A program made the position numbers and the translations under genes. Source: Heteronotia binoei (taxonomy: Eukaryota). Taken from it: DNA of 64,000 nucleotides. The notes beneath the pieces were generated by a model. That model had not been told where the DNA came from. It made no database searches and worked only from the letters and a program-made list of their open reading frames with translations. How positions within the stretch are numbered: position 1 is the stretch's first letter; each line of letters begins with the position of its first letter. The stretch lies in contig NC_083228.1 of assembly GCF_032191835.1 (NCBI RefSeq), positions 111,476,001 through 111,540,000 of the forward strand, written 5' to 3'. This document shows positions 2,071-57,000 of the stretch, piece after piece.

Positions 2071-2264
2071 GTACATTTTGATGCTCCCTGCTAACATTGC
2101 TCTATGCAGTCATTCTAGACCTGTTCACTGCATGGTGGACATAGCAAAAGCAGAAGCAGAAGTATCAAATAGGGGAAGAACTGTGATAAAATAGGTAGAC
2201 AGTTCAGCCTGTCCATTAAGATCTGCCTGGCAAGCCCTGCTTTTTGTTTCCCTGCCCTTTAGAG

Positions 2265-2615
2265 TGTCACTATTATGTGTAAAGAGACAGCTTATAGCAC
2301 GTGCTGCAGAACTGAAAGTAGATCTAGAGGCTTAGATGATCTACATGACAGCAGGTGGCTGGCTGCCAGAAGAATTGCATCAGCCAGCAGAGTCAGCATG
2401 ACACAGCAAGTTGCTGATTGGCTGTCCCATGTATAAATGTACAGAGCAACTGTGGTGATTGTGGGTTAAAGGAGTTGGAGTGCAGCGGAGCATATTGTCA
2501 GTCAGGAGAGTGAGTTGGTGTAAATAAATGTATATAGTGGTTTTACAGCTACTGTGTACAGCCTTCATTCTTGCGTCACTAAGAATCACCCTCTTGGTCT
2601 CTAAGCGCATCGACA
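2265..2615 (+). repeat. 5' LTR (351 bp)
   Basis: tgtcac...cgaca; differs from the 3' LTR at 3 positions; TATA-like gtataaa and aataaa present. Confidence 0.97.
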
Positions 2616-2616
2616 G

Positions 2617-2630
2617 GGTTATGGGCCCAG
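2617..2630 (+). promoter_or_regulatory. Primer binding site, copia-type (internal tRNA-iMet fragment)
   Basis: ggttatgggcccag immediately after the 5' LTR, matching the classic copia PBS. Confidence 0.92.
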
Positions 2631-2745
2631 CACGCTTCCGCTGCGCCTAGAAGACCTGAGAGAGGTGGTAAAGAAAGGACGCTGACTTGCTCCAGAGGCT
2701 GCCTAGGAGGTGAGACCAGCAGTGGCTGAAAGGAGTCTGAGCAGG

Positions 2746-5213
2746 ATGGCTACAGCAGCTGCTACAGTGCTGGTGGAAAAGCTCACCACTACCAACTACA
2801 ACACCTGGTAGCTGAGGTTAGAGCATTTCCTGAAGAAAGAGGGGCTTTGGGACTGTGTGTCAGCTCCTCCAGCTAATCCCACGCCGGCAGAGGCCGTTCA
2901 GGATCAAAAAGTTCTAGCCACCATCATTCTAAGTGTTTCAGACGACCAGCTGGTGCATGTCCGTGGGCACCAGACAGCAAAGGAGGCTTGGGAAGCTCTC
3001 AAGGCTGTGTATGTACAGAAGTCAGCCGGTTCGCTGATATCCCTATGGAGGAGGCTCTACAGGAAACGAATGCTGGCTGGGGAGTCGATGAGGGACCACC
3101 TCGACGGTATGTCTAATTGTTTCTAAGAGCTAGAAGCAAGAGGGAAAGCTGTGGCTGACGATGATAAAGTGCACATAATATTGAGCTGTCTGGACGAGAG
3201 ATATGACATGCTGGTGATAGCATTTGAAGGGCAGGATGCCGACAAGCTAACTTTGCCTTATGTGACCGGCAAACTCCTGGCAGAAGAGCAGAGGCAGCTG
3301 GAAAGCAAGAGAGAGCAGACTTGACCCAAAGAAGAAGATAAGCCAAGGTCTGTTGGGGCTGGTTCCAGCTGGCAAGCCGAGGAAGAGGAGAAAGCCTTGC
3401 AGGTGCGGAGGAGGCGCTGTTATCTGTGTAATCAACTCGGACATGTGCAAAGATTTTGTCCTCAACAGCAGCAGAGAAAGAGCCGGCAGCAGTCTTCAAG
3501 GACACCCCAGGTGACTCTGGTAAGAACTGGTCCGGGACTGCAGAGTCTGCCCTGGGTTGTAGATTCTGGGGCTACTCAGATATTCTGCTGCCAGGAAAGG
3601 AGCTGCAAGACTCCAAGCCAGCTGAGCAGGAAACTGTGAGCTTAGCTGATGGGAGACAAGCTAGCGTGCTTTGCCAAGGCACGGTCTATTTTCCTGGACT
3701 TAATCACAGGCTTGAGAATGTATTATGTGTGCCAGAGTTAGCAACTAACTTGTTAAGTGTCTCCGTTCTGGCAAGAGCTGGGTTTACCGTAATATTTGAT
3801 AAGCAGGGCTGTGCAATTTTGAAGCAGGGTAAACAGCTGGCTAAAGGCACTCTAAGAGCTAATGTGTATGAGCTTATGCAAAATGTGGGGAAGGCTCATA
3901 CTGTGTGGAATAGACAGCCACACAGCAGGTGCATTCATAGGCTGCATAGAAGGCTGGGTCACGCCAGCTACAACACAATAAATAAAACTCTGGAGATATT
4001 AGAGGGAGTGAAGGTTGATAAATGCAATGCCTTCCTAGATTGCAATGTTTGTAAAGAAGCCAAATCAAGGGCAGTTCCATCGACCAAACGGAGTGAACGT
4101 GTGTCAGAGAGACTGCTCCAATTAATACATGCTGACCTGGTGGGGCCGTATGCACCCAGTGTTTCTAAAAACAGGTTTGGGTTGATTTTGGTCGATGACC
4201 ACAGCAGGTTTGCGGTGGTGTATGCTATTAAACACAAAAGTGATGTCTGTGCCACCTTCAAGTACTGGGCTAGAAGGGTACAAAAGCAGTTGAATGCCAA
4301 AATTGCCTCAATTCAGACTGACCAGGGAGGTGAATTTCTAAACAAAGAGTTTGCCAACTATTTGAGACAAGAGTGCATAGAGCATAGAGTTGCCAATGTT
4401 TCCTCCCCGTTGGAGAACAGGGTGGTACTCCAGGGTATCTGCCATGCTTTGTTAGAAGATAGCGGGCTAAGGCAGGCATACTGGGGTGAAGCCTTAAAAG
4501 CATCCTATTATATTTCCAATCATATGTGGACGGAGGCTATAAACGATATACCCTACAGGGTTCTGTATGGGAGAAAGCCATCCCTGGATCACCTAAGAAT
4601 ATTTGGTTCAAAGGCTTGGGTGAACATCCCTCTTGATAAGAGGAGAAAGGGAGGTCCCAAAGCCAGAAAGCTTGTGTTTGTAGGGTACCAAAATGGCATG
4701 AAGTCCTGGAGGTTTGTGGACAATAATGACTTGATTAGGCTGAGTAGGTCTGCCTCGTTCTGCGAGGATGAAAATTGGTCTAAGATTCATGCCAATGAAA
4801 TGCCTAAGGAAAATAAGCTGCAACTGTCTCTAGCAAGTGAGGAGGGACAAAAGCCAGAAAGCTCACTGAAGCAGGAGAAAGACAGTGTGAGCAGTTCAGC
4901 AGGCAGCAGTAAAGAGCAGGAGACTTCTGAGGCGGTAAAAAGGGAGCCGGTCAGAGTCTCTGCAAGAGAAAATAAGGGTGTGCCGCCCAAAAGATATGGT
5001 TTTGAGGCTGATGTTAACTATCTGGGCAAGGGAGATAGTTTGCCAGATGGAAAGCCAAGGGGCTGTGTAAGTGCACCAGAGGTACACGTGGATACTTCTT
5101 TCACTAGGGAAGAAGGAGGTTATACCTATGTATATGAGGACCATCCTAAAACATATCCCAGTGTGCTGGAGCTGTTGAATGAGATGTCTCTTGGAGAAGA
5201 AGGAGACACATGA
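2746..5213 (+). pseudogene. Copia gag-protease-integrase polyprotein, disrupted
   Basis: gag (NYNTW, TAKEAWEAL, CYLCNQLGHVQRFC knuckle), protease DSGAT, HRRLGH...CNVC, IHADLVGP, DQGGEF. Three in-frame stops in gag and a frameshift near 3590. Confidence 0.95.
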
Positions 5214-5805
5214 GCAAAGCCTGGAAGGAGAGGCTGTAAGCAATAACTGAATTAAAAAGGGTGCAATGTACAATGTAGAATGCTGGAATGTAAAAGCAAT
5301 GCTGTAAAATAAAACAAACTTACTGTTTGAAAATGTATGATAAGCTGTAACTAAACTATGTAACTAAACTATTGTAAAACTAAACTGAAGAAATGTGTAA
5401 CAATTTTCAAAACTGCAAATGTTAAGCTATGTGTAAGAAAAACCTGAGATCTGTAAGCAAATGTGAATTTGAAAAGTATGTGCACCTGTACACCACACTA
5501 CACGGTACTGTGTTATCAACAAGTCTGGGAAACAAGCCAGCAAAAAAAGATAAGGCAAGTGCTCAGTCTGGGCAGAGAGCCAACTGAGGAGATATGGTCA
5601 GTCTGGGCAGAGTGCCAACTGATAAGGGTATGCTTGCAAGTTAATTGGCAAGCAGAGAAAAATGTGTGTGAGTTCAGGAGAACAAAATACTGAACTGTAA
5701 CCAATGTATATATGGGAATGAATGTAACCAAATGTATTGATGGAGAAATGATCAATATGTATAGGCAATGTTGTAATGTATGTATGACAGCACTAGCTAT
5801 AACCT

Positions 5806-5814
5806 GAGGAGGGG
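5806..5814 (+). promoter_or_regulatory. Polypurine tract
   Basis: gaggagggg directly 5' of the 3' LTR. Confidence 0.9.
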
Positions 5815-6165
5815 TGTCACTATTATGTGTAAAGAGACAGCTTATAGCACGTGCTGCAGAACAGAAAGTAGATCTAGAGGCTTAGATGATCTACATGACA
5901 GTAGGTGGCTGGCTGCCAGAAGAATTGCATCAGCCAGCAGAGTCAGCATGACACAGCAAGTTGCTGATTGGCTGTCCCATGTATAAATGTACAGAGCAAC
6001 TGTGGTGATTGTGGGTTAAAGGAGTTGGAGTGCAGCGGAGCATATTGTCAGTCAGGAGAGTGAGTTGGTGTAAATAAATGTATATAGTGGTTTTACAGCT
6101 ACTGTGTACAGCCTTCATTCTTGCGTCGCTAAGAATCACCCTCTTGGTCTCTAAGCGCATCGACA
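5815..6165 (+). repeat. 3' LTR (351 bp)
   Basis: Direct repeat of 2265-2615. Confidence 0.97.
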
Positions 6166-16688: not shown

Positions 16689-17667
16689 AGGAAGGCAGAT
16701 GTTTTGGTGGGGATTAGACCATTTGTTTTCGGTGGAATGGAGTTGACATTTGTTGAATTTAGGCACCCTCATGGACTCAGTTTTGCTTTTTGAAAAGGAG
16801 GTGGATGTGGTGGCCAAAATCACTTTATATTAGCTGCATGAAGTTTACCGGCCCCTCCCAGCCGGCTGGTTTCGCCAGCGATAGGCTGGGGGGACACTGT
16901 TGCCTACCCAGATGGAGGGAAGGCTGAGCGACGACCTGGCCATCCGGGAATCTGTTGCTGGGCGGGGAGTCGGGGCAATAAAAGCCCCAGCCCCGCCCAG
17001 TGCTTTGCAGTTCTTTTCCGACTCTCAGCAGGAGAGCCACGTAGGAGGAGCGTTCCTGGTTGGGCTTGAGTGGAGGTGCTTGCGAGGGGCATAGTCCGGC
17101 GTTGCAGCTGGCCAGTTGCCCAGCATGAGCAGCAGCAGCCTGGTAGTGGCCGGGTTTAGCTGGCAGGAGCGACGAGACACAAGCGGCTGCGCTTGCAAGG
17201 GGCAAGTCCGACGTCGCAGCTTGGCCAGTCGCCCAGCGCGAGCGGTGGCAGTGTAGAGTGGCTGGGTTCGGCCGGTGGAAGAGCGATGAGACGGGTTTGA
17301 CCTCAAGTGGTTGGGGGCATTAGTGGAAGGACTGCAGGTGCAAGGGGTTTGGCCGGTAGCCCCCCCTTTTACCTCTACTGCGGAGTAGGCCTACGTGGGG
17401 CTGATTGGGAATTTTGTCCCCCCTCTTTTTTGCGCTCATAGCAGGGTTGGTGTACAGGGGAGGTTGATCGAAGGGGGTGGCTGCACAAACCCCCTCCCCA
17501 CCTTTTTTTCTTTTGGTTATCTCCTCTTGCTGGGCATAAGGAAAAGGGGGTAGCAAGGAAAGGGGCAGGCTGGGCAGCCCCTGCCCCCCCTTTTTGAAAT
17601 AGGGCATATATATTTATAAGTGAGTTGGGTGGCCAACCGGGGCAGAGTTAGCACAAGGGCCTGGATA

Positions 17668-19220
17668 ATGGCTCCTAAGAAGGGTCAAGGCCCCTCCAAG
17701 GGGAAGCAGCTGGCCAGGCCTGCAAGGAGGTGGGGCCAGCATCCTGGCTCCCCGGAGCAAGGGGGCCAGGAGGCCCAGATAAGGCAGGCCATTATAGGCC
17801 AATTGGACGCTTTGGAGCAGCAGAGGAGTGCTATGGGGGCGTCTATATGGGAGGGGCGCCGTAAGGCAACGGGTCGATCTGCCCGGTTGACTTTTGAAAA
17901 GGAGGTGCTGGCACGTCTTTCCGCATTACAGGGCGAAGCCGAAGGCATGGACGTGAGACGCGAATCGGACCATGAGGATAGTGATGACACAGGGGAGTTG
18001 CCCGGCAGGGAACCCCAGGCTCGTGGGGCAGTGGAAGAAGTTGGGCAGCTGGCCCCGGTGGTCATGGTGGCTGTTACCCCCTCGGGGGACGTGGTTAAAC
18101 CTTCTTTGCAACACCAACCTCAGGTGTGGCCTTGGGGCTCCTGGGGTTTACCACAGTCAACAGTGTCCCCAAGTATGGCGGGTGGGACAGCGGTAATGCC
18201 TGGAAATGTTGGGCCTTGGGTACCCCAGGATTTGGGTGGGCCGTCTTGGGCCTGGTGCACTCCTGTGGTACCGCCGCCAAGTCAGAGCGGTGCTGATGTG
18301 GCTACTCAGGCCTCTTCACAGGCGGTTGCCTCAGTGGCTCCACAGAGTACCCCCGCCCCACAGCCCGTATTGGGCGTGCTTCCGTGGGTTGGGAAGGACA
18401 GTTGCCAATGCAAGATGGCTGGCCAAGCTCCCTGTATGGCAGGTGGAGCTACCCCCCGAATCCATATGGGACCATAGCATTTCAGGTGCTTCCATATGGC
18501 AATACTGCATTGCCATTGGGGAATCACCTGTCTGTGGCTACAAGGGATAAGATTTTGAGGGGGAATAAGTTGATGTCTTTAGCCTCCTTTTTAGAGAACT
18601 GGAAAAAAAAGGATAAGGAGGAATTAGATGATAAGGAGAAGGAAAAGCTAAAGCGGAAAAAGGTGGATAGGATCTGGGCCAATTGGCTGCCAGGTTTCTT
18701 AATCTATGCAGGGGTTATAGCCAGGGTGCAGCCAGTTCACGGGGCTACACTTTTTCAGTATTGCAACATGTGTACCACACATACACTGATTTTGTTGGTG
18801 TGGCCTAGTTGCAATATGATGAGACCTTGCGGAATGCAGGCTTTAGTCAATCCTGGGCTGCCCTGGGATCAGATTAATCAGCAGCTTTGGCTGCAGTTAA
18901 TGTCACCGGCGAAACCTAACCCAGGGGAATGGGCTGATAGTGGACATCTAGTACATAAGCAACAGGTGAGTGGAGGTGCCCGCAGTACGGCGGGCCAGTC
19001 GGTTCAACCCCAGCTGTTATGTTGGGAATTCACATCCAAGGGCACGTGTTCTAGGAAGGCATGTAAGTTTAAGCACGAGTGCCCGCTGTGTGGTGGGTCA
19101 CATGCCTTTTCAGCCTGTAGCAAGTCCAAACCCAGGGCGGGTGCAAAACACCCCAGGGGAGGGGGTAGTCAGCAGCCACCTGGAAAAGGGACCCAGTCCC
19201 ATACAGCTGAAGGTACTTAG
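17668..19220 (+). pseudogene. Ngaro gag (frameshifted) with CCCH/CCHC zinc motifs
   Basis: MAPKKG...; ALPLGNHL; KEKLKRKKVDR.WANWL; CWEFTSKGTCSRKACKFKHECPLCGGSH. Confidence 0.88.
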
Positions 19221-20793
19221 GCGGTTGCTGGTTAATTACCCCCTGGTGGTGGATAGGGCCTATCTATTAGATGGCTTTTCTTTTGGATTCTGTATTCCAT
19301 ACCAGGGACCTAGAGTACCTTGTTTGGCCCCTAACCTTTGTTCCATGGTAGGAATGGAGCATGTGGTAAGAGCAAAAATAGCTAAGGAGTGTGCAGAGGG
19401 GAGGGTCCTAGGCCCCTTTGAATCTCCGTCAGTACCTACCTTACGGATATCTCCCCTGGGGGTGGTGCCTAAAAAGGCGCCTGGGGAATACCATTTGATA
19501 CACCACTTGTCTTACCCCAGGGGCGGATCAGTTAACGATTCCATTCCGGACGTTCTCTGTTCGGTCAAGTACACCTCGTTTGACCAAGCAGTCAAAGTGG
19601 TTCGGAGTTGTGGTGTGGGGTCTGAAATGGCAAAATGCGACATTAAGTCGGCCTTTCGCCTTTTGCCGGTGCATCCAGAAGACTTTGATTTGCTGGGCTT
19701 TAGTTTTGAAGGAAAATATTACATGGACAGGCCATTACCCACGGATTGCTCAGTGCCTTGTGCTGCTTTCGAGCGTTTTAGTTCCTTTATGCAATGGGCA
19801 CTCAGGGCCAGGTCTGGGCTAAGTGATACGGTTCACTATTTGGATGACTACATTTTCGTGGGCCCGGCGGGGTCCGGGCAATGTGCCAGGCTACTTCGGT
19901 CATTTGAAGAGCTGGCGCAGGAGCTTGGGGTGCTGTTGGCACATGAAAAGACAGAGGGCCCTAGTTCAATGCTTACATTTTTAGGTATTGAATTGGATAC
20001 CACGCAGCAAGCTTTATGGCTGCCTGCGGAAAAAGTGGAAGGTCTCAGAGAGTGATTGGCTTCTCTCAGGAAGCAGTGCAAAGTGTCGTTGCTTGAGCTC
20101 CAACAGATTGTGGGGCATCTCAGCTTTGCGTGCAAAGTTGTGGCACTGGGGAGGGCCTTTTTGCAGTGGCTATGTGACGCCATGGGGTCCTTGCGTCTCC
20201 CTCACCATAGAATCCGAGTAACTACAGGCATGGTCTGGGAGGTCTGGGAGGAATTTTTGGATTCCTTCGATGGAATTTCTTTTTGGCGGGAGGACTTAAA
20301 GATTGAAGGTGAGCTCCAAATATCTTCGGATTCTATGGGGGCCACTGGATTTGGAGTATATTTTCGAGGCCACTGGTGTGCGGAACATTGGCCTGCTGGG
20401 TGGTTGGCCAGTGGGCTCTGCCATGACCTCACTTTTTTGGAGTTCTTTCCTATTGTAGTAGCCGTTTGGCTTTGGGGTGAGCAACTGGCCAATCACACAG
20501 TCCATATCTGATGTGATAACATGGCTGTTGTACATGTTATCAACTCCTTGTCATCCAGGTCAGAATTGGTTATGAATTTGGTGCAGGCATTTAAATTGCG
20601 GTGCCTCCGGTTGAACATTTTATTTCTAGCATGGCATGTTCCGGGAGTGTGCAATGGGGTGGCGGATGCTCTATCTTGCCAACAGATCGAGTGCTTTCGC
20701 CAACTTGCTCCGGAGGTGGACCTGCAGCCTACGCGACTGCCCCAGGAACTTTGGCAGCTTGGGAAGCTGAAGCCAGTAGGGCGATTCAATTAG
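18970..20793 (+). pseudogene. Ngaro RT/RNase H (two premature TGA)
   Basis: SPLGVVPKK, KCDIKSAFRLLP, HYLDDY, HEKTEGP, SSDSMGATGFG, (W)CDNMAVV, HVPGVCNGVADALS. Confidence 0.95.
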
Positions 20794-21664
20794 CATTGGC
20801 TCCAAGCACCCAAAAAGCCTATGGAAGGGCTGACTTGCAGTTTCGGGCATTTAGGAGTGCTGCTGGGTTGCCAGACAGCTGGCCAGTCCCAGTGGCACAT
20901 ATCATGCAGTTTTGTATTCATCAGAAAGATAGAGGGTTAGGGCTGAAGCCAATTAGGGGCCAGTCAGCTGCACTTGCCTTTATCAGTAAAGTGCAAGGAC
21001 TTCCAGAAGGCACAGGTGATTTTAGAGTCAGGAAGATGCTGGAGGGCTGGGCCAGAGAGCGCGGCCCGCGGGCAGATGCCCGGCAGCCCATATCCCCTTC
21101 TGTCCTGCAGGGACTGCATAAGGTTTGGCCTAGTGTGTGTTTAACTTCCTTTGAGGCCACTCTGTTTCATGCGACCTCTTTGGTGGCCTTCTTTGGAACA
21201 CTTTGGATTAGTGAGTTGGTGGTGCAGTCAAAGAAGGACAATTCTGACCAGGCGCTATGTGCCAGTGATGTCAAATTTGAAGAGGGGCAGGTATGGTTGA
21301 CGGTTAGGAGATCCAAAACGGACCAGCATTGAAGGGGCACGATTATTACAATCGACCAGTGTGCAACTACTGAGTTGTGCCCAGTCAAGGTGCTGGAACA
21401 GTATTTTCCGATCAGGGGGGAGGGGGATGGCCCCTTGTTTCGCCACAGAGAAGGTTCCTCCCTGACAAAATACCAATTCTGGGCAGTGACAAGTAGGGCA
21501 TTGGTTAAGTTGGGTTTAGGGGACGTTAAATTTGAGACACATTCATTCCGAATTGGTGCTGCATCCACGGCAGCAGCAATGGGCTATTCGCCCTCTAATA
21601 TACAGCGCATTGGCCGTGGCGGTCAGCAGCTTTCAAATCCTATGTGCGCCCGTTGATCACTTAG
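20750..21664 (+). pseudogene. Ngaro tyrosine recombinase
   Basis: LAPSTQKAY, FFGTLWISE (catalytic R to W), RSKTDQ, HSFRIGAAS, GR(W)...SYVRP; one stop and one 1-nt frameshift. Confidence 0.93.
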
Positions 21665-21742
21665 GAATCCAAGGAGGGCTGGTTAGTATTTTGTGCCCAT
21701 TGGCAATTATTTTCCTGGTGGTGACTGTTTTCTGTTTTCCAG

Positions 21743-22343
21743 GTGCTGTGGCTCGTAGGGAGATGCGTCAGATCCTCAACTGCGGGCACAGTATGGTGTT
21801 CTGGGCTGCCCATCAGGCCAGGAGATCGCCGGTTGGCACCCAGTTGGGCCTCAGTGAGTGGGCAACAGTGGAGTGGCTGGGTTGCCATGGCCTGTGCTGG
21901 TCAGGGATCATGCCACTGTTGTTTTGTGTGAGGAGGGTGCCTCCTCCACACATCCTGGTCATCCACCTGGGGGGGAATGACCTGGGTTTGATGAAGGGGA
22001 AGGCCCTTTGGTGCAGGTGCAAGAGGATCTTCAGGCCATTAAGCAAAGATGGCCAGGAGTTATTTTAGTATGGTCAGCAATTTTGCCACACAGGATCTGG
22101 CAGTCTGCCTTATCCCCTGGGGGGATAGAGTGAGCCAGACGTAAGGCTAACCGGGCCTTACAGAAGGCCATGGAAGGGGGCTTAGGTATATTTCTTCCCC
22201 ATCCGGCCATATGAGTCGAGAATGCCGACTTGTATAGGCCGGATGGGGTTCATTTATCAGAATTGGGTAACCGGGCCTTTTTGGATGAAATAAGGCAGGG
22301 GTTGTGGTCAGCTCTGGGCTGTCCGGTGGGTGCGAATGCCTAA
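21743..22343 (+). pseudogene. Ngaro SGNH/GDSL hydrolase ORF
   Basis: GHSMVFW, HLGGNDLG, DGVHLS blocks; frameshift near 22005 and two stops. Confidence 0.88.
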
Positions 22344-22799
22344 GCAGAGGCTTTGCATTGGCGGTGGCGGTGGCAGGATGAGGTATGGGCCACAATGTTT
22401 TTGGGGAGCACCTATGGCTCAGCACCTGTTGGTGCAGGTGGTCTGTATGAACTGCAGATGGGCTTTACGGCTCAATGCTGGGAGTGCAGATCATGACAAA
22501 GCCTCACCGGGGAGGATCTTTCCAGTGGGATTGATGCCGGCCGAGGTGGAGTTTGGGCCTGGCTGCTCAGCTCCAGCCGGAATATATTGGGCTCATGCTG
22601 GGGGCAGGGTGGCTCGCTCATTCAGGACAAGGCGGGGTCATGGGGTTGACCCCAGGGCTTGTCTGGTTAGGCCCTACCCCTTGCCAGTTTAGTTCGTTCA
22701 AGTTTTTAAATAAAGCAGCCCTGTCTATCCAACATACTGTGTCAGCCTCTTCATTCCGACTGGGTGGGCAAACCAGCTCTCTCCTTTCATAGCCTCGGA

Positions 22800-27462: not shown

Positions 27463-28950
27463 TTTTATTATTTATTTATTTCGATTTATATCCCGCCTAC
27501 CCCACCGAAGCGGGCTCAGGGCGGCTTACAACATAAAACTCTAACAATAAATCAGTTTAAAATACATTAATAATTTATACAGTAAAATACATAAAAACAC
27601 ATTTATCAATATACCATGCTACATCTTCCCTAAATGTCGGTTCTTCAAGTATTCCAATGTTCAGATATGCTGATGTTCACGAATTTGAATATTCAGATAT
27701 CGGTCAGTTGTATGCCAACTGGAAGAGGGTTGTCTTACAGGCCCTGCGGAACTGTCCAAGTTTCCGCAGGGCCCTCACCTCCTCCGGGAGCTGGTTCCAC
27801 CAACAGGGGGCTGCAATCGAAAAGGCCCTGTCCCTAGTTGTTTTCAGATGGACCTCCTTTGGCCCAGGGATTGTAAGGAGGTTCTGAGACCCCGATCTCA
27901 GCACTCTCTGGGGAACATGTGGGAAGAGACAGTCCCTAAGGTAGGCAGGTCCTAGGCCATAAAGGGCTTTAAAGGTCATAACCAGCACCTTGTACCGAAC
28001 TCGGTATGCTATCAGCAGCCAATGCAGTCCCCGAAGCCCTGGCTGAATGTGCTCCCATCTAGGGAGCCCTAACAACAGCCGGGCGGTGGCATTCTGCACT
28101 AGCTGTAACTTCCGGGTTTGGCACAGGGGCAGCCCCATGTAGAGGGCATTGCAGTAGTCCAGCCTCGAGGTGACCGTTGCATGGATCACTGTTGCCAGAT
28201 CACCGTTCTCCAGGAAAGAAGCCAACTGCCTTACCCGCCTAAGGTGAAAAAATGCGGACTTGGCGGTGGCTGCTATCTCAGCCTCCATAGTTAAAGTAGG
28301 CTCCAATAGCACTCCCAGGCTCCTGACCCTGTGCGCTGTTGTCAGAGGCACACCGTTGAGGGCTGGTAAGGGAATCTCCCTCCCCGGACCACGGCGACCC
28401 AAGCAAAGGACCTCTGTCTTTGCTGGATATAGTTTCAATCCGCTCAGCCTGAGCCATCCAGCCACGGCTTGCAACGCCAGGTCCAGGTTTTCTGGGACAC
28501 AGGCCGTCCGTCCGTCCATGAGTAGATAGAGCTGGGTGTCATCAGTGTACTGATGCCAACCCAGCCTGTATCTCCGAGCAATCTGGGCAAGGGGGCGCAT
28601 GTAGATGTTGAACAACATCGGGGAGAGCACTGCCCCCTGAGGCACCCCGCAATCAAGCGGGTGCCTCCGGGACAGTTCGTTCTCAATCGCCACTCTTTGT
28701 CCCCGACCCTCAAGGAAAGAGGTCAGCCATTGTAAAGCCAACCCCTGAATCCCCACATCGGTGAGACGGCAGGTCAGCAACCGATGGTCAACCGTATCGA
28801 ACGCTGCCGATAGGTCTAACAACATCAGTACTGCCGAGCCACCTCGATCCAGATGCCGCTGAAGATCATCCACCAGGGCAACCAGCACTGTCTCTGTCCC
28901 ATGACCCGGGCGAAAGCCCGATTGGTGGGAGTCGATTGGTGGGAGTTTTT
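27463..28950 (-). mobile_element. 5'-truncated L2-clade LINE
   Basis: RT ORF, AT-rich 3' UTR, end tgtaagccgccctgagccc...gcgggatataaat plus (aata)n tail. Confidence 0.95.
27704..28935 (-). CDS. L2 reverse transcriptase (N-truncated, stop-free)
   Basis: QSGFRPGHGTET, LLDLSAAFDTVDH, GVPQGAVLSP, YTDD (YADD variant), SRLDYCN. Confidence 0.93.
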
Positions 28951-29317
28951 CAACAGTGGTGCCTTGCCTTTTGAATGCCATCCTCCTTGAGGCTTGACTG
29001 ATGCCTACCTTACTTTCCTTTAGGTGCCAGGCCTAAACATTCCATGTTCCCAGGCTTTTGACTAAGGGTGTTTAATCCTTTTAGCTGTTTCATGGCATCA
29101 TTTTAGACTTTCTATGTTTTGTGTTAAATGTGGAGGAGTTTATGACCTGGTTTGTTTTTAATGGGCTGTTTTACTGGCTGTTTTTAATGGTCGTGCTTTA
29201 ATGGTTTTGTGGTATTGTTTTAGTTGTAATTAGAGGTGCTGATGTGGGTGGGGTATCTCCTGCCTTCAGCTCCCAGAAAAACAACTTTAAAAAAAAGGCT
29301 ATTGGGCCTATGGCATA

Positions 29318-38603: not shown

Positions 38604-39936
38604 TTGCAGGGTAAATCTAAGGGCAAGAGCCCTGCACAAAAATCTAAGCGGCCTGCACCTAAGCGCCTGGGGCCTCAGCCTTCATCGACTGAGGATGAAG
38701 ATGACACTTTTGAGCAGTCCATTTTAGCCAAGCTAGCCACTTTAGAGGGTTTTGGCAATAGGCAGCCTGTTTTATTGGGGGGTGGGTAAAACGGGTGCGG
38801 CTTCCAAGGCAGACAAGCATACTGCTAAGAAGTGCTTCCAGGAAGAAATCCTTAACCGCTTGTCTTCCCTTGAAAGCAGGTCTTCCACGGATGAGATGGT
38901 TGTAGTGTTGCCTCTTCCAGTGGAGGTGCCCGATATGGATGTTTTGCAAGGCTTGAATTTGGGTAGGGGTGAGTTCGCACAGCACACTACCACAGCTTGG
39001 CCCTGGGAGCTGTGGGGGCAGTCAGCCGCTTTCAGGCCGGTTGCAAATAGTCAGCCTGCAGCTTTTAATAATTCCCAATCTTGGGTTTGGGGCCTTAACC
39101 TGGCTAGCCCTTTGGGAGGGCCTGCCTGGCCAGTTCCCGGGAGCGTCCTCGGCCCCGTATGGTGGCTGGGGTTTTTCTTATCCTTGGGGTCTGTCATACT
39201 CTGCTGTTTCAGCTAAAGCTTTGCCTTTTGGTGACCTGGCCCTACCCCTTGGGGATCACTTGTTGCCGGCCACCAAGGATAAAATACAGAAGGGGGATTT
39301 TGTGGACCTATTTTCTCTGTTCTACAGGGAGCTGAAGAAAAAGGATAAAGAGGACCTGGATGATAGGGAAAAGGAAAAAATCAAGCAGTGGAAGGTTGAT
39401 AGGACCTGGGCCATTTGGGTGCCTGGGTTCATTATTTATACTGGAATTATTTCCAGGTCGCAACCATGGAGGGCCACTTCTCTTTTCCAGTATTTAGACA
39501 TCATATACAAAAGCTACACCAGCTTTCCTGGCCCCGCCTGGCTTCAGTATGACAAGGAGTTCAGGATGAGGGCAGCTTTGAACCCTGCCCTTCAATGGGA
39601 TCAGATTCAGCCACAGCTGTGGCTGCAGGTTATGTCTCCAGCATGACCTAATCTGGGTGCTAGGACAGATAGTGGACATGTTGTGCAGTGCACAGCCACT
39701 GCTTCTGGTGCCCGCAGCAGTGCAAGGCAGGCGGTTCAACCCTGCCTGCTCTGCTGGGAGTTCGGGTCCCGTGGGTGTGTGGTAAAAAGAATTGCCCATA
39801 CAAACATGAGTGCCCTCTCTGCAGGGGGTCTCATTCCTTCACAAATTGTTCCAGGGATGAACCCAGGAGGGGACAGCGCAAACAGAGCCCGGATGGTGCA
39901 GATAAACCATTTGGAAAAGGGCTCCAGCCCAATTAG
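38604..39936 (+). pseudogene. Ngaro gag (frameshifted)
   Basis: ALPLGDHL, ELKKKDKEDLDDREKEK, DKEFRMRAA, CWEFGSRGCV.KKNCPYKHECPLCRGSH. Confidence 0.88.
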
Positions 39937-41500
39937 GGTGACAGTGCTTGAGGCATGGCTCCGTAATTATGCAAAGGATGAGGATAGGCTTTATTTGTTA
40001 AATGGTTTTAGGTTCGGTTTCAGAATTCCTTTCCAGGGCCCCCGAAAGCCATTTATGGCCAATAACCTGAAGTCAGTTATAGGGATGGAGCACATAGTTC
40101 GTCAAAAGATTGGGAAGGAATTAGCTGAAGGTAGGGTGATTGGTCCATTTCCCGCACCCCCCGTGAGTACTTTGAGGGTCTCTCCTTTGGGCATTATGCC
40201 TAAAAAGGCCCCGGGGGAGTTCAGATTGATCCATCATTTATCTTACCCTCATGGGGAATCGGTGAATGATGCCATACCAGAAAATTTATGTACCGTGCAG
40301 TACACATCTTTTGACCAAGCGGTGCAGATGGTAAGGCTGTGTGGTAGGTGCTGAGTTGGCAAAGTGCGACATAAAATCAGCCTTTTGCCTTCTCCCTATT
40401 CACCCTTTGGATTTTGAATTGCTGGGTTTCCAATTTGAAGGGCAGTTTTATATGGATAGGGCCCTGCCCATGGGGTGCTCCATTTCTTGTGCTGCTTTTG
40501 AGCGCTTTAGCTCTTTTTTAGAATGGGTGGTGTGCCTTAGGGCTCATTTGAGCAATGTGGTGCATTACCTTGATGACTTTCTATTTGCTGGCTCCTTAGG
40601 CTCTGGTCAGTGTGCCCACTTGATGGCAGCCTTTGCAGCGTAGTCTGAGGAGCTGGGCATTCCCTAGCTCATGAGAAGACTGAGGGCCCTACCCAGCAAT
40701 TGACATTCTTAGGAATTGAACTGGATTCCTTCCTTCACGCCTCCCAAGGGACAAAATTCTAGGTCTCCAGGAAATGGTTGCACAGTTTTTGCTGCGGCGA
40801 AAGGCAACCTTGAGGAAACTGCAACAGTTGGTGGGTCACCTAAACTTCATTTGTTAGGTGGTCGCTCCTGGTCATCCTTTCTTGAGGAGGCTGTGTGATG
40901 CAATGGCTGGACTACGCCAGCCTCATCACAGAATTAGGATTTCCAGAAGTATGCAGGAGGACCTTTTGCTATGGCAGGAATTTTTAACCTCCTTGAATGG
41001 TGTCTCCTTTTGGAGGGCTGATTTATTGCTGGAAGCCGAGCTTCAAATTACATCTGACACCATGGGGTCCCTAGGGTTTGGCGTCTACTTCTGCAGACAC
41101 TGGTGTGTGGAGGATTGGCCTCTGGAATGGATAGAGGCTGGGTGAAACAGAGATTTGACTTTCTTGGAGTTCTTTCCGATCTTGATGGCCATTTGGTTCT
41201 GAGGGGACGAGTTGGCAGATCACACAGTCCACTTTTGGTGTGACAACTTAGCTGTGGTACATGTCATCAATTCCTTCACGTCCAAATCCCCCAGGGTTAT
41301 GAGGCTTGTGCGGGCTTTCACTCTTCAGTGCCTGTGGCTGAACATTTTTTTTCACCAGGCATGTGCCTGGGGTGGCTGACGCTCTCTCTCGCAAACAGAT
41401 GCAGAGGTTTCGCCAGCTTGCCCCAGACACAGATCTTCTTCCAACAATGATGCCCCCCAAAATATGGAGGATTGGTGGGTCGAGGCCGGCAGAGCGATAA
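39683..41500 (+). pseudogene. Ngaro RT/RNase H (frameshifts, stops)
   Basis: SPLGIMPKK, KCDIKSAF, ALPMGCSISC, HYLDDF, TSDTMGSLGFG, WCDNLAVV. Confidence 0.94.
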
Positions 41501-42352
41501 GTCTCGCCATTGCTCCTAGCACCAGAAAAGCATATAACAGGGCAGTAAGCCAATTTGAAAGTTTCAGGACCAAAGTCAGTTACCATAGGGAATGGCCTCT
41601 TCTGGCGGAGCAATTACTCCACTATAGCGTTTCTTTAAGGTTCCAGGGCCTAGCAGTTCGATCCATTAGGGGCTGGCTGTTGGCTTTAGCCTTCACTAGT
41701 AAGGCCATGGGGTTCCAGGAGCATACTGGTGACTTCCACATTAAGAAAATGCTGAAAGGCTGGTCCAGAGAAGCAGGACCCAGACCGGATGCCAGGCATC
41801 CAATTTCCCCCAGAGTTCTTAGGCGTTTATGGTCAGTCTGGGGCCAAGTGTGTATGTCGGATTAGGAAACGCTGCTATTTCATGCAGTCTCCCTTGTGGC
41901 ATTTTTTGGGGCTCTCAGGGTGAGTGAGCTGGTGGCTTAGTCCAAAAGGGACGTTTTGGGTAGGATGACAGATCTGTACATATTACAGTTCATTGCTCCA
42001 AGACCGACCAATTGCAACAGGGGAACACTATTCATTTGGGCTCTTGTTCTGATGTGAAGCTCTGTCCCATAGCTGTTTAAATGCACTACCTTGCTGCCTG
42101 TGGTCCCGGTGCTGGCCTGTTGTTATGTCATGGGAACTGGAGTCCCCTGACGAAGCATCAATTTTGGTCAGTGACAGTCAAAGCCCTTGCTAGGCTAGGC
42201 CTGTCAGGGGTTAAGTTCGGCACTCTCTCTTTCTGCATAGGTGCAGCATCCACAGCTGCGGCCCTGGGTACTCCCCACTGGCCATTCAGAAGCTTGGTAG
42301 GTGGTGTTCTTTGGCCTATAAAGGCTATGTTCACCCTCTTGCGCTGCAGTAG
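41464..42352 (+). pseudogene. Ngaro tyrosine recombinase
   Basis: IAPSTRKAY, FFGALRVSE, SKTDQ, GTLSFCIGAA (HSFR decayed); internal deletion near 41965. Confidence 0.9.
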
Positions 42353-42403
42353 CTGACATCAGGTTATTGGGGAGATGTTATTTACTTGTTCTTCTTTTCT
42401 CAG

Positions 42404-42990
42404 GTGCTGTGGTCCGTGGAGAGAGACAACACGTCCTCATACGTGGACACAGCTTCGTGTTCTGGGCTGCCCATCAGGCCAGGAGGACTTCAGCCAGGTC
42501 ACAGCTGGGGCTCAGCCAGTGGGCCACCAGTGAATGGCATGGATGGCGGGGTCTCCATTGGTTGGGCCTGTTGCCCCTATTGTTTGAAAATGTTCATGTT
42601 TTGCCACCACATGTTGTCATGATACATTTAGGGGGGAACGATCTAGGATTGCTCAAGGAAAAAGCCCTTGTGCTGCAGGCTAAGGATGACTTTAGAGTCA
42701 TTAAGAGCCGTTGGCCTCAGGCTTTGATTTTGTGGTCTGCCATGATCCCGTGCCAGGTATGGCGTGGGGCATGGTACCCAAGGGTGATCGATAGAGCTCA
42801 CCGCAAAGCTAATTTGGAAATGAAAAAAGCCCTGGGGGGGGGGGGGTTGGGCCACTTTCTCTCATACCCTGGAATCCGTGCTGATTGCACGGATTTCTAC
42901 AGGCAAGATTGCGTCCATCTTTCCGATAAAGGGAATGACGCCTTTTTGGAAGATCTGAAAGAAGGGCTTAAGGCAGTACTGAGTGTTTAG
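42404..42990 (+). CDS. Ngaro SGNH/GDSL hydrolase, stop-free
   Basis: GHSFVFW, HLGGNDLG, DCVHLS; Ser-Asp-His positions kept; no in-frame ATG before the GHS block. Confidence 0.88.
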
Positions 42991-53966: not shown

Positions 53967-54103
53967 GTGGAAAACTGAATTCTGCAACCTTTCAGCAGCA
54001 ACCATCTATACCTTGTGCCAATAGCCACTGATGGACCTCTGATCCATGTGTTTATCCAGTTGAAGATTAATTTTACTTTTTATTGTTAGAGTCTAATCTG
54101 AGC

Positions 54104-55391
54104 ATGAGTAAAAGATTTGAAAGTGGTGCTAGCAAGTGCAAGAGACAGAGACATAAAACTGCTATGGTCATGAAATTAAGACCAATCACTACTTTTGTGC
54201 ATCAACCACTCATTGGAGCAACAAGAGCCAGCAGTGAAGCTATCCAGCCTGAGCCAACTACTAGCATGCAACCAGACAAAAAACTCCCTGAAAGAGAAAC
54301 AATGAAGCAGGATGTGGAACAGCAAGCTGATTATGAGGAAGTAGCCATGATGCTGGCTCAAACTGAAAATATAGAACTAATTCAAGAGTCACTTACTGGA
54401 CAGGGAGAGGCTAAAGAGCCACAAGAAAATAATGTAAATAGTCAGATTTTGCAGTTCACACCTGGTAAAATAGGCCAAGTCCAAGGTGCTCCAGATGCAG
54501 ATAAAGATAATGCCAAACATAGATCTACTCTAACAGATGTTGGTTTGTGGTCAGAATTATCACATGAAGAAGTATCCTATTGGGTAGAGAGGGGTCCCTC
54601 TCAAGTTTTGCCCCGTTGTGGACCATTTTCAAATTCCAAGCGAGTGTGCAAAAAACAGTCCAGGCTTTGCACAAAAGCTCTTTTTTATTCAACAAAAGCA
54701 AATGGGGAAACATATAGCCAAGAGTGGCTTGTATATTCTCAATCAAAAGGCTGGATTTATTGCTTTGTTTGTAAACTCTTTCCAAACCTTGCATCTTCTT
54801 CCACAGTTTTAGCTGCTGAAAGGTTTGATAACTGGCAAACCCCCACCTTATCCAAACTCATGAAAGGGAAGCATAGGAATGCCTAACAAGGAAGCAAGGG
54901 CAAACGTTAACTTCCAAACTAGAGGATCAAATAAAAGCAGAACACAATACTGGCAGCATGTCATGGAGAGAATTATTGCTGTAATATGCATTCTTGTAGA
55001 ATGAGGCTCACCATTCAGAGGAGACAATGAACACTTTGGATCTCCAAATAATGGCAATTATCTTGGTCTTTTAGAACTAGTGGCAAAATTTGATCCATTT
55101 TTACTTGCTCATATCAATTGGTATGGACATTCTGGATCAGGCAATCCCTCTTATCTGTCAAAAACAATATGTGAGGTGAGGAAATGATTCAACTCATGGC
55201 AAAAGGTTAAGGTTAGGTTAGCAGTCAAGTTAAAACAGATAAAAGAAAGTACTTCTTCACCCAAAGGGTGATTAACATGTGGAATTCACTGCCACAGGAG
55301 GTGGTGGCGGCTACAAGCATAGAAAGCTTCAAGAGGGGGTTAGATAAAAATATGGAGCAGATGTCCATCAGTGGCTATTAGCCACAGTGTG

Positions 55392-55424
<33 letters not shown>

Positions 55425-55427
55425 ATG

Positions 55428-55458
<31 letters not shown>

Positions 55459-57000
55459 TTTGGACACTGTGTGACACAGAGTGTTGGACTGGATAGGCCA
55501 TTGGCCTGATCCAACATGGCTTCTCTTATGTTCTTAAGGATGCAATTTTGGCTGATGTGAGAAAGTCTGGATATTTCAGCTTTTCAGTAGATTCCACTCC
55601 TGACATTTCACATTCTGATCAGTTGACTTTAATTATCAGATATGTATCACCTGAAGACGGTTTGCCAACTGAGAGATTTTTAACTTTCCGTGAGCTAAAA
55701 GACCACTCAGGAGAAAGCATGGCTAATTTAGTAACTATTTCACTACTGAGCTTGAAATTGACTTTAGAAAATGCTTTGGGCTGTCTTATGACAACACTGC
55801 CAACATGGCTGGTAAGTACAGCAGTATGCAGCAAAAAATCATTGAAAAAAACCAGTTTGCAAGATTTATTCCATGCGCAGGTCACTCTTTAAATCTGGTG
55901 GGCTGTTCAGCTGTAGATTGTTTCCTTGATGCAGTGAACTGTTTTGGCATTATCAAAGAATATCTTCTTTTCATCCTCCACAAAGAGATGGGGAGTTCTG
56001 CCCCCTCAGTCTAAAGTACCTAAATATTTGTCAGACACTAGGAGCGACACACACGTAAAAGCCACAGAAGCTGTTTTGGATTACAGTGCTATCACTGTTG
56101 GCCTCAGTCATTTGTACTCTGACGTTAATGGGAAGGGGGAGACCAGGCTTCAAGATAACAATCTTTTGTAAAAAATGGAAGAACTGGAATTTGTGTTTAC
56201 CCTGCATTTTTGGACTCATGTGCCAGGTCATTTTTCACAAGGTTAGCAAAGCCCTTCAGAAATCAGACCTGTTATTGAGTTCCTGTGCAAGTTTTTACAA
56301 TTCACTTCTGGATTTTTAAAGGAAAATTAGAGAAGATTTTGATGAGCTTGAGAAACAAGCAAAAGCCATCTTGCCAAATGTTAACTACAAAACAAGAAGA
56401 CAAAGAGTAAGGGAACGGCAAAGAAATGACAGAAGTGCACCTGATGCCTTAGAAGCACTTTCTTCAAGAGATACGTTTAGAATAAAATCTTTTATTCCTA
56501 TATTAGATGCACTTGAAGCCATTTTAAAAAGAAGTACTGTGCACAGTGATGTTGCACAGTTGTTTTCCATTCCATTCCATCCATCTGACAGCATCTAAGC
56601 AAGAAATTCAGCAAGGCAGCACACCCAGAAGATATTGACCTGAAACTTATTGATGAACTTTTGCACTTTCACCTGTATGTGAGACAAAGCCATAGGCTTT
56701 CAGAAGAGCACTCTCTGTCTCATAAAGACCTTTATCAAATTATATACAAGGAAAAAAATCAGATGGCCTTTCCTAATGTGGAAGTGATCTTGCGGCTATT
56801 TCTTAGCTTTATGGTCACTAATTGCCTGGGAGAGAGGAGTTTTTCAAGACTCAAAAAAAAGAATTAAGGGCCACAGTGTCTCAAGAGAGTTTGTCCACAC
56901 TGTGCATTCTGCACATTGAAAGTGACAAACTTAGACAAACAAATTTTGATGAAGTTTTGGATGATTTTGCTATGAGGAATGCTAGAAAAAAACATTTTTA
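54104..57000 (+). pseudogene. hAT transposase, multiply disrupted
   Basis: MSKRFESGASKCKR, EWLVYSQSK..YCFVCKLF (TTF zinc finger), RGDNE..GS.NNGNYLGLLE, SVDSTPDISH, PCAGHSLNL, C.GERSFSRLK. Confidence 0.93.
55213..55533 (+). mobile_element. CR1 3' end inserted in the transposase
   Basis: KYFFTQRVINMWNSLPQEVV, (ta)/(tg) microsatellite, tail ttctcttatgttc; TSD ttaagg. Short antisense CR1 piece also at about 53995-54060. Confidence 0.9.

Follow-up and report, generated by a model that had tools for sequence, protein, structure and literature searches.

We propose that the RNA of Ngaro retrotransposons is spliced to yield a second protein, in which the N-terminal part of Gag (Gag-N) is fused to the SGNH hydrolase encoded by the fourth ORF of these elements. 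That the RNA is spliced at all appears highly likely to us, and the explanation as a whole very likely, judging from the sequences of many related elements. The first-pass annotation had suggested that this ORF is expressed from a spliced subgenomic RNA, as retroviral env is. Splicing as the route to this ORF is strongly supported by a conserved donor, a conserved acceptor and six intronless genomic copies. The analogy with env fails, since the donor lies within gag and the product would thus be a Gag(1-~140)-SGNH fusion, started at the gag ATG and lacking both a signal peptide and a transmembrane segment.

The stretch of DNA analyzed here (the window; 64,000 nt of Heteronotia binoei) holds two decayed Ngaro copies with the ORF order gag, RT/RH, YR and SGNH, whose nearest database proteins are gecko proteins. 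All features of both copies lie on the plus strand. Copy 1 opens with its 5'-terminal split direct repeat A1 (16847..17029), which is matched by both A1 and A2 of the relatives L082/L084. The coding part of its exon 1 (17668..18094; 427 nt, hence phase 1) extends from the gag ATG (MAPKKGQG...) to the donor (18092..18100; junction 18094|18095), inactivated by TT instead of GT. The ensuing intron of 3,648 nt (18095..21742) comprises the rest of gag, RT/RNase H (18931-20790) and YR (20655-21664), the latter two placed by tblastn with the ORFs of the intact copy L223. It closes with a polypyrimidine tract and CAG acceptor (21720..21742) ranking second of the 349 AG sites in the element. The phase-1 SGNH exon (21743..22343) is frameshifted near 22030-22051 and is followed by a B repeat with AATAAA (22372..22771), with no A2/B2 after it.

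Copy 2 has lost its gag start and is frameshifted in the coding part of exon 1 (38607..38968), where the relative L066 aligns from 38607, and it retains an intact phase-1 donor, GGG|GTGAGT (38966..38974; junction 38968|38969). Its intron of 3,435 nt (38969..42403) contains the rest of gag, RT/RH (39767-41488) and YR (41368-42352), all decayed, and the polypyrimidine tract and CAG acceptor (42381..42403) tie for first rank among 317 AG sites. The SGNH exon (42404..42990) is open for 194 codons with GHS, HLGGND and DxxH, and matches PF13472 at E=1.9e-5, below the curated cut-off. Decay has thus struck the two copies differently, copy 1 having a dead donor and a frameshifted SGNH and copy 2 a broken gag start; copy 1 keeps A1 and one B repeat, copy 2 only a B remnant, and the complete array of split direct repeats, A1 ... 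B1-A2-B2, is present in their relatives. An RVT_1 match supports the RT, and the order gag, RT/RNase H, YR is that of Ngaro-like YR retrotransposons. We take the YR ORF to be such from its motifs HSFRIGAAS and GRWRS..Y; the decayed YR ORF in the window gave no Pfam match. Elsewhere in the window lie an apparently internally deleted, recently inserted Copia-type LTR element (2264-6113; 300-nt LTRs 99% identical; integrase ORF 3432-5213), what we take from its motifs to be a LINE RT fragment (27704-29032, minus strand), and presumably, again from motifs, hAT-like transposase fragments (54071-55892).

The two acceptors read ...ttttctgttttccag|G in copy 1 (junction 21742|21743) and ...ttcttcttttctcag|G in copy 2 (junction 42403|42404), approximately 51-78 nt past the YR stop and in phase 1 relative to the SGNH frame, as originally described. 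Using a simple polypyrimidine-plus-YAG score of our own, not MaxEntScan, we found scores at least as high as those of the copy 1 and copy 2 acceptors at 48 and 9, respectively, of the window's 4,799 plus-strand AG sites; by the same simple score, the acceptor ranked only 9th, 20th and 27th of ~300 AG sites in three of ten elements. Because the two window copies are related and hence not independent, the pair of acceptors alone is suggestive rather than proof. The genome, however, holds thousands of candidate SGNH loci (10,807 in the first search). From 214 loci spanning the SGNH start, which were the top search matches and not a random sample, we discarded duplicates, the TSG101 exon and the six intronless copies, which gave 119 distinct unspliced loci. 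The acceptor proved to be conserved across Ngaro subfamilies, with AG at the homologous base in 112 of these 119; among the remaining seven, two still have the AG but displaced by an exonic deletion, two carry local deletions and three carry point changes. When the loci were grouped into 14 subfamilies by single linkage at 84% SGNH identity, with one representative each, YAG and a T at position -6 were found in all 14, while none of eight fourfold-degenerate SGNH sites was invariant. Synonymous divergence of the SGNH (dS) was above 1 or saturated in all 21 representative pairs tested, and the domain is, by this comparison, under purifying selection (dN/dS 0.08-0.19 in the eight measurable of the 21 pairs). 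A YTNAY-like motif, a candidate branch point, occurs in many but not all subfamilies. Judged at the level of the family, we regard the acceptor as real and the question as settled.

A matching donor, phase-1 G|GTRAG, is found within gag at codon ~123-143. At the copy 1 donor position G|GTAAG occurs in 15/15 aligned relatives, and at that of copy 2 the 15 relatives have GT in 12 cases and GC in three (20 relatives were fetched for the family of each window copy). The donor precedes the conserved gag WPW motif by 10-13 codons in all 15 new whole elements, and GTRAG was present in 14 of 16 elements examined, the other two being a GTAGG donor and a frameshifted copy. It requires that glycine be encoded by GGT, a codon used for 104 of 384 gag glycines. 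An alternative copy 1 donor at ~17993 was rejected, as relatives are without GT there. The three GC-bearing sequences (L064, L078, L080) form a branch of the copy-2 family in which a GC-AG intron is possible. With a G|GTRAG donor, a polypyrimidine-YAG acceptor and matching phase, the interval has the features of a U2-type GT-AG intron, and a spliceosomal origin of the junction is highly likely in our view.

The predicted fusion of ~335 aa consists of a basic, K/R-rich N-terminus, two helices, a disordered linker and the SGNH domain. The first 30 residues carry a net charge of +6 to +11 and the SGNH domain one of +9 to +19 with a pI of 10.2-11.9 in all nine proteins analyzed, none of which has a signal peptide or transmembrane segment (maximal Kyte-Doolittle 19-mer 0.93-1.68); N-glycosylation sequons number 0-1. 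The helices (residues 30-55 and 72-87) were modeled with pLDDT 51-74 (mean of the model, 64). Foldseek placed the model among SGNH/PAF-AH/GDSL structures (top matches, E~6e-7), with no fusion-protein fold among the matches listed, and the only sequence match in the PDB was the esterase of ZfL2-1 ORF1 (4C1B, E=1.9e-4). The full SGNH blocks GxS, G, N (HLGGND) and DxxH, which include invariant columns, are kept in 9 of 14 representatives, the others having HLGEND, DSVH or decay.

Public gene models from RefSeq/GenBank, possibly ab initio, likewise fuse Gag-N to SGNH in Eublepharis, Gekko kuhli and Anolis, and also in Elgaria, Rhineura, Hemicordylus and Pogona; their Gag N-termini read MPPKKG..KGKQP... 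In frogs, gene models join long low-complexity N-termini to SGNH at the protein level. The alignment search yielded at least 83 proteins among 8,000 scored candidates, and 1,746 relatives at E<=0.001 were found in the representative library. A YR-SGNH fusion, considered because of "open frames" of 555-585 aa, was rejected, a stop or another frame lying upstream in 10/10 loci fetched. Other SGNH fusions occur in gene models as well (P0095, P0094, P0088, P0089, P0149, P0167, P0174, P0186, P0109); fusions of this type include a snake VGLL4 isoform, a ZNF318-like protein and a gecko protein of 3,112 aa in which SGNH stretches occur six times, and in fish, gene models join cold-shock domains to this type of SGNH.

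A close known parallel is the ZfL2-1 ORF1p, in which, according to the available text of that study, an arginine-rich motif and a dimeric coiled coil accompany an esterase that binds acidic liposomes (PMC3905857). As far as that text goes, the CR1-type LINE ORF1p (4C1A/4C1B) and the predicted gecko fusion have in common a basic N-terminal peptide, a C-terminal basic SGNH domain and, going by the model of the fusion, a helical segment. They differ in that ZfL2-1 ORF1p is a single unspliced ORF1 of a LINE, whereas the gecko fusion would be built by splicing from the gag of a YR element, and in that the ZfL2-1 coiled coil is a demonstrated dimer, whereas the helices of the gecko fusion are predicted only. 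Moreover, esterase-type LINE ORF1p is the first ORF of an element with an APE-RT ORF2, whereas the gecko fusion is encoded by a YR element. Its likeness to ZfL2-1, together with the lack of a signal peptide and transmembrane segment, leads us to read the fusion as likely a cytoplasmic, membrane-binding companion of Gag and not an Env.

The steps we envisage are as follows. From part of the element RNA, the phase-1 GT-AG interval that begins at gag codon ~123-143 and ends shortly after the YR stop would be removed. This would cost the RNA its RT/RH, its YR and three quarters of gag, while the gag ATG would be retained. The unspliced RNA is both the genome and the template for Gag, RT/RH and YR, as established for this group. 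Translation of the spliced RNA, which we consider very likely, would give the ~335 aa fusion with a catalytically complete predicted SGNH fold. A cytoplasmic location is predicted for the fusion, as is binding to acidic membranes, which is suggested by the strongly basic nature of its SGNH domain and by the ZfL2-1 esterase and whose odds we put at about even. It may also co-assemble with full-length Gag, a step in which we have a little under even confidence.

The reading that survives best beside ours accepts splicing and differs in function only: the fusion would be a self-limiting regulator or an esterase acting on a host substrate rather than a membrane anchor. Truncated Gag can poison assembly, as Ty1 p22 does, and the fusion carries only the N-terminal helices of Gag; most of the subfamily representatives retain the catalytic motifs, and the SGNH appears dispensable in cis, all of which would suit such roles. 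On the other hand, the strongly basic SGNH (net +9 to +19) parallels the liposome-binding esterase of ZfL2-1, and we therefore consider this alternative possible but unlikely.

The apparent dispensability derives from young non-autonomous Ngaro lineages (L171-L178, L180, L190), which have lost RT/RH and most of YR through at least three separate deletions while keeping gag, donor and acceptor. L171-L177 have an intact gag of ~510 codons under constraint (dN/dS 0.1-0.2 in most pairs), and an SGNH dN/dS of ~0.6, from 7-11 nonsynonymous versus 4-6 synonymous changes and confounded by mosaic divergence; copies of the L180 type have an internal SGNH deletion. This deletion and the weaker constraint are compatible with a product that is made from an RNA of its own and acts in trans, though the counts are small, and the SGNH thus seems dispensable in cis. 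An extra partial B repeat of ~290 nt (96-97%) sits between A2 and B2 in L171-L173, L176-L178 and L181.

According to a second alternative, the SGNH is made mainly from unspliced RNA, by readthrough of the YR stop, reinitiation or an upstream ATG of its own, and splicing is a side reaction. In the L266-L273/L275 and L282 subfamilies, YR and SGNH share a frame interrupted by a single TGA, and there, given also upstream ATGs, readthrough or reinitiation could add other products. Copy 2 indeed has no in-frame ATG before GHS (ORF 42322-42990), as the first-pass annotation had pointed out, but this does not hold family-wide: 35 of 119 loci have a reachable one. The positions of these ATGs are, however, unconserved, in contrast to donor and acceptor, which every subfamily keeps. 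Furthermore, the YR stop lies 44-85 nt from the SGNH exon with all three frames represented among nine elements, and in several subfamilies the frame is closed by a stop 4-7 codons before the exon. In the main text of a study of the Xenopus Ngaro-like elements DIRS-53_XT/54_XT, all ORFs overlap, the SGNH being an extra overlapping ORF of unproven function (10.1101/2021.08.05.455354), which would favor expression from unspliced RNA; on balance we deem this route very improbable as the main one.

Evidence for splicing also comes from DNA in which the GT-AG interval has been precisely removed. A genome search with the fusion proteins returned six contiguous intronless copies, in four subfamilies, that join donor to acceptor; two further searches yielded only two of these once more. 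Over its whole length the first (L102/L181) matches L171-L174 at 98.6-99.7% identity, except that it is missing precisely the GTAAGC...TTTTTCAG interval of 1,323 nt, whose donor and acceptor are both present in 10/10 fetched relatives. It keeps A1 (99.5% to A2) and B1=B2 (100%), and ends in flank-AA|A1 and B2-CAA|flank, as do 9/10 other copies with a readable A1 start; it shows no poly(A) and no target duplication, and its two ends share a core, as those of its relatives do. The remaining five (L219, L218, L215, L216 and L217), from three more subfamilies, join at the aligned donor. For L101/L219 this donor is seen in 6/7 relatives with exon 1, and the full-length relatives carry a 3.6 kb intron. 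L201/L218, a member of the copy 2 family, is joined at the copy 2 donor, which had been predicted before L218 was found. L215-L217 make up the fourth subfamily and, being 83-86% alike, may stem from one event, so that the four subfamilies with junction copies represent at least four independent events. An origin of the intronless copies as LINE-mediated processed pseudogenes was rejected, as poly(A) follows AATAAA in 0/6.

Most likely, the spliced RNA has been copied back into DNA as these intronless copies. The spliced RNA keeps A1 and B1-A2-B2, so that RT and YR provided in trans can occasionally copy it back, and the RT of DIRS-1 acts in trans, according to the accessible part of a study of that element (PMC7192593), which offers a route for such copying. 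Alternatively, the intronless copies could be deletions at microhomology, arising at the DNA level or by RT template switching, with the polypyrimidine-AG serving some other role. Internal deletions are frequent in these Ngaro elements, and in three intronless subfamilies the 3 nt G|GT are common to donor and acceptor and could serve a template switch. In the fourth the two sites share only 1 nt, however, and at least four independent subfamilies used the same canonical donor/acceptor pair, the donor of which needs the synonymous GGT codon. Other deletions examined miss GT/AG: the RT-YR deletion of the non-autonomous L171-L178 lineage falls elsewhere, and the L180 deletion does not begin with GT. 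We thus grant such deletions an even smaller chance than expression from unspliced RNA. A second intron behind the non-autonomous deletions was likewise rejected, since their breakpoints are not GT-AG.

The view of the spliced product as a genuine Env counterpart that gives extracellular infectious particles can hardly be upheld: its ORF too would be a fourth, 3' one reached by splicing, and SGNH esterases bind membranes in ZfL2-1, but the signal peptide, the transmembrane segment and, among the listed matches, a fusion-protein fold are lacking, sequons number 0-1, the domain has the SGNH fold and the basic N-terminus is shared with Gag. Retroviral and errantiviral env is translated from a subgenomic mRNA in which the 3' ORF is reached by splicing out pol, and the Env protein is marked by three features, namely a signal peptide, a TM anchor and a fusion fold. 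The resemblance lies in a 3' ORF from a spliced RNA, here by fossil junctions only; the difference is that the fusion starts with ~140 Gag residues and that none of the three Env features was found in it. Further parallels are copia-type LTR elements, whose gag RNAs are spliced, and the spliced fusion accessory proteins Bet of foamy virus and Rec of HERV-K, where splicing of one RNA also gives a second protein with a common N-terminus; they differ in element order, and the domain added here is an enzyme. Since some YR elements of algae and fungi are known to contain introns, splicing by itself has precedent in this group.

The Xenopus DIRS-53_XT/54_XT elements, as presented in the main text, have the same gag, RT/RH, YR and SGNH ORFs and A1...B1-A2-B2 repeats. 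Here, by contrast, the SGNH would be a 3' exon fused to Gag-N and not a separate ORF, and that main text contains neither "splic" nor "intron" (10.1101/2021.08.05.455354). A paper on the newt, in the portion available, quotes Poulter and Butler as favoring frameshifting for YR (PMC13003380). The accessible parts of PMC4021074, PMC13343379, PMC12129022 and PMC7599744 held no relevant Ngaro content. Neither this Ngaro intron nor a TSG101-SGNH isoform was described in the papers that our literature searches reached.

An intact single-copy SGNH exon (L235/L250; G000:C21:152569810-152570391, minus strand) lies in intron 7 of TSG101, between exons 7 and 8, in phase 1 and with a tandem TAGCAG acceptor that would explain RefSeq TSG101 isoforms differing by one residue. 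The resulting UEV-SGNH isoform, which would be without the C-terminal exons of TSG101, is annotated in gene models of squamates, turtles, a crocodile, the echidna, marsupials, the manatee and a tenrec; no bird or boreoeutherian one was among the matches listed. These SGNH domains show 68-90% identity to the gecko query, and Leu stands in place of the catalytic His in 11/11 checked. In a tree of 41 rows (seven cold-shock-domain proteins skipped; no outgroup, hence unrooted), the TSG101 SGNH clade (100/100) falls between squamate and frog Ngaro SGNHs, which is consistent with, though not proof of, a Ngaro origin of the exon. Searching 6 kb upstream and 3 kb downstream of it by tblastx with nine elements gave only scattered short Ngaro matches. 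A processed retrocopy of canonical TSG101, 95-100% identical to its exons, was also seen (L255; G000:C21:191988000-191995000). Similarly, the last exon of a gecko DUSP12 isoform is a Ngaro-derived SGNH exon (L256/L278; G000:C4:17581305-17581901, minus strand) with a phase-1 acceptor and His replaced by Leu, which nests among gecko Ngaro SGNHs.

Speculatively, and with doubts outweighing our confidence, one may picture vertebrate Ngaro splicing its esterase exon onto Gag to make a membrane adaptor like LINE ORF1p, and this portable cassette of acceptor and SGNH being domesticated in the amniote ancestor as a catalytically dead, alternative last exon of TSG101, the UEV-SGNH protein tethering the cargo-binding domain of ESCRT-I to membranes or acting as a decoy for Gag. 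A transposon ORF kept as an alternative host coding exon is also what Lyosin and other L1 ORF1 fusion isoforms represent in the available text of a screen that dealt with LINE ORF1ps only, without mention of DIRS or SGNH (PMC12129022); those isoforms derive from LINE ORF1, whereas the source of TSG101-SGNH is likely the SGNH exon of Ngaro.

Taken together, our analysis offers a likely expression route and protein for the unexplained fourth ORF of Ngaro, and the annotation of these elements should change. LINEs and YR elements, two unrelated orders, would have converged on an architecture of basic peptide, helix and esterase, which strengthens the case for lipids in retrotransposition and provides a defined natural protein with which to test it. 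Finally, TSG101 across amniotes and DUSP12 in geckos have apparently each taken over an SGNH exon of this kind, a sign that transposon-derived isoforms of TSG101, an ESCRT gene central to virus budding, have been overlooked.
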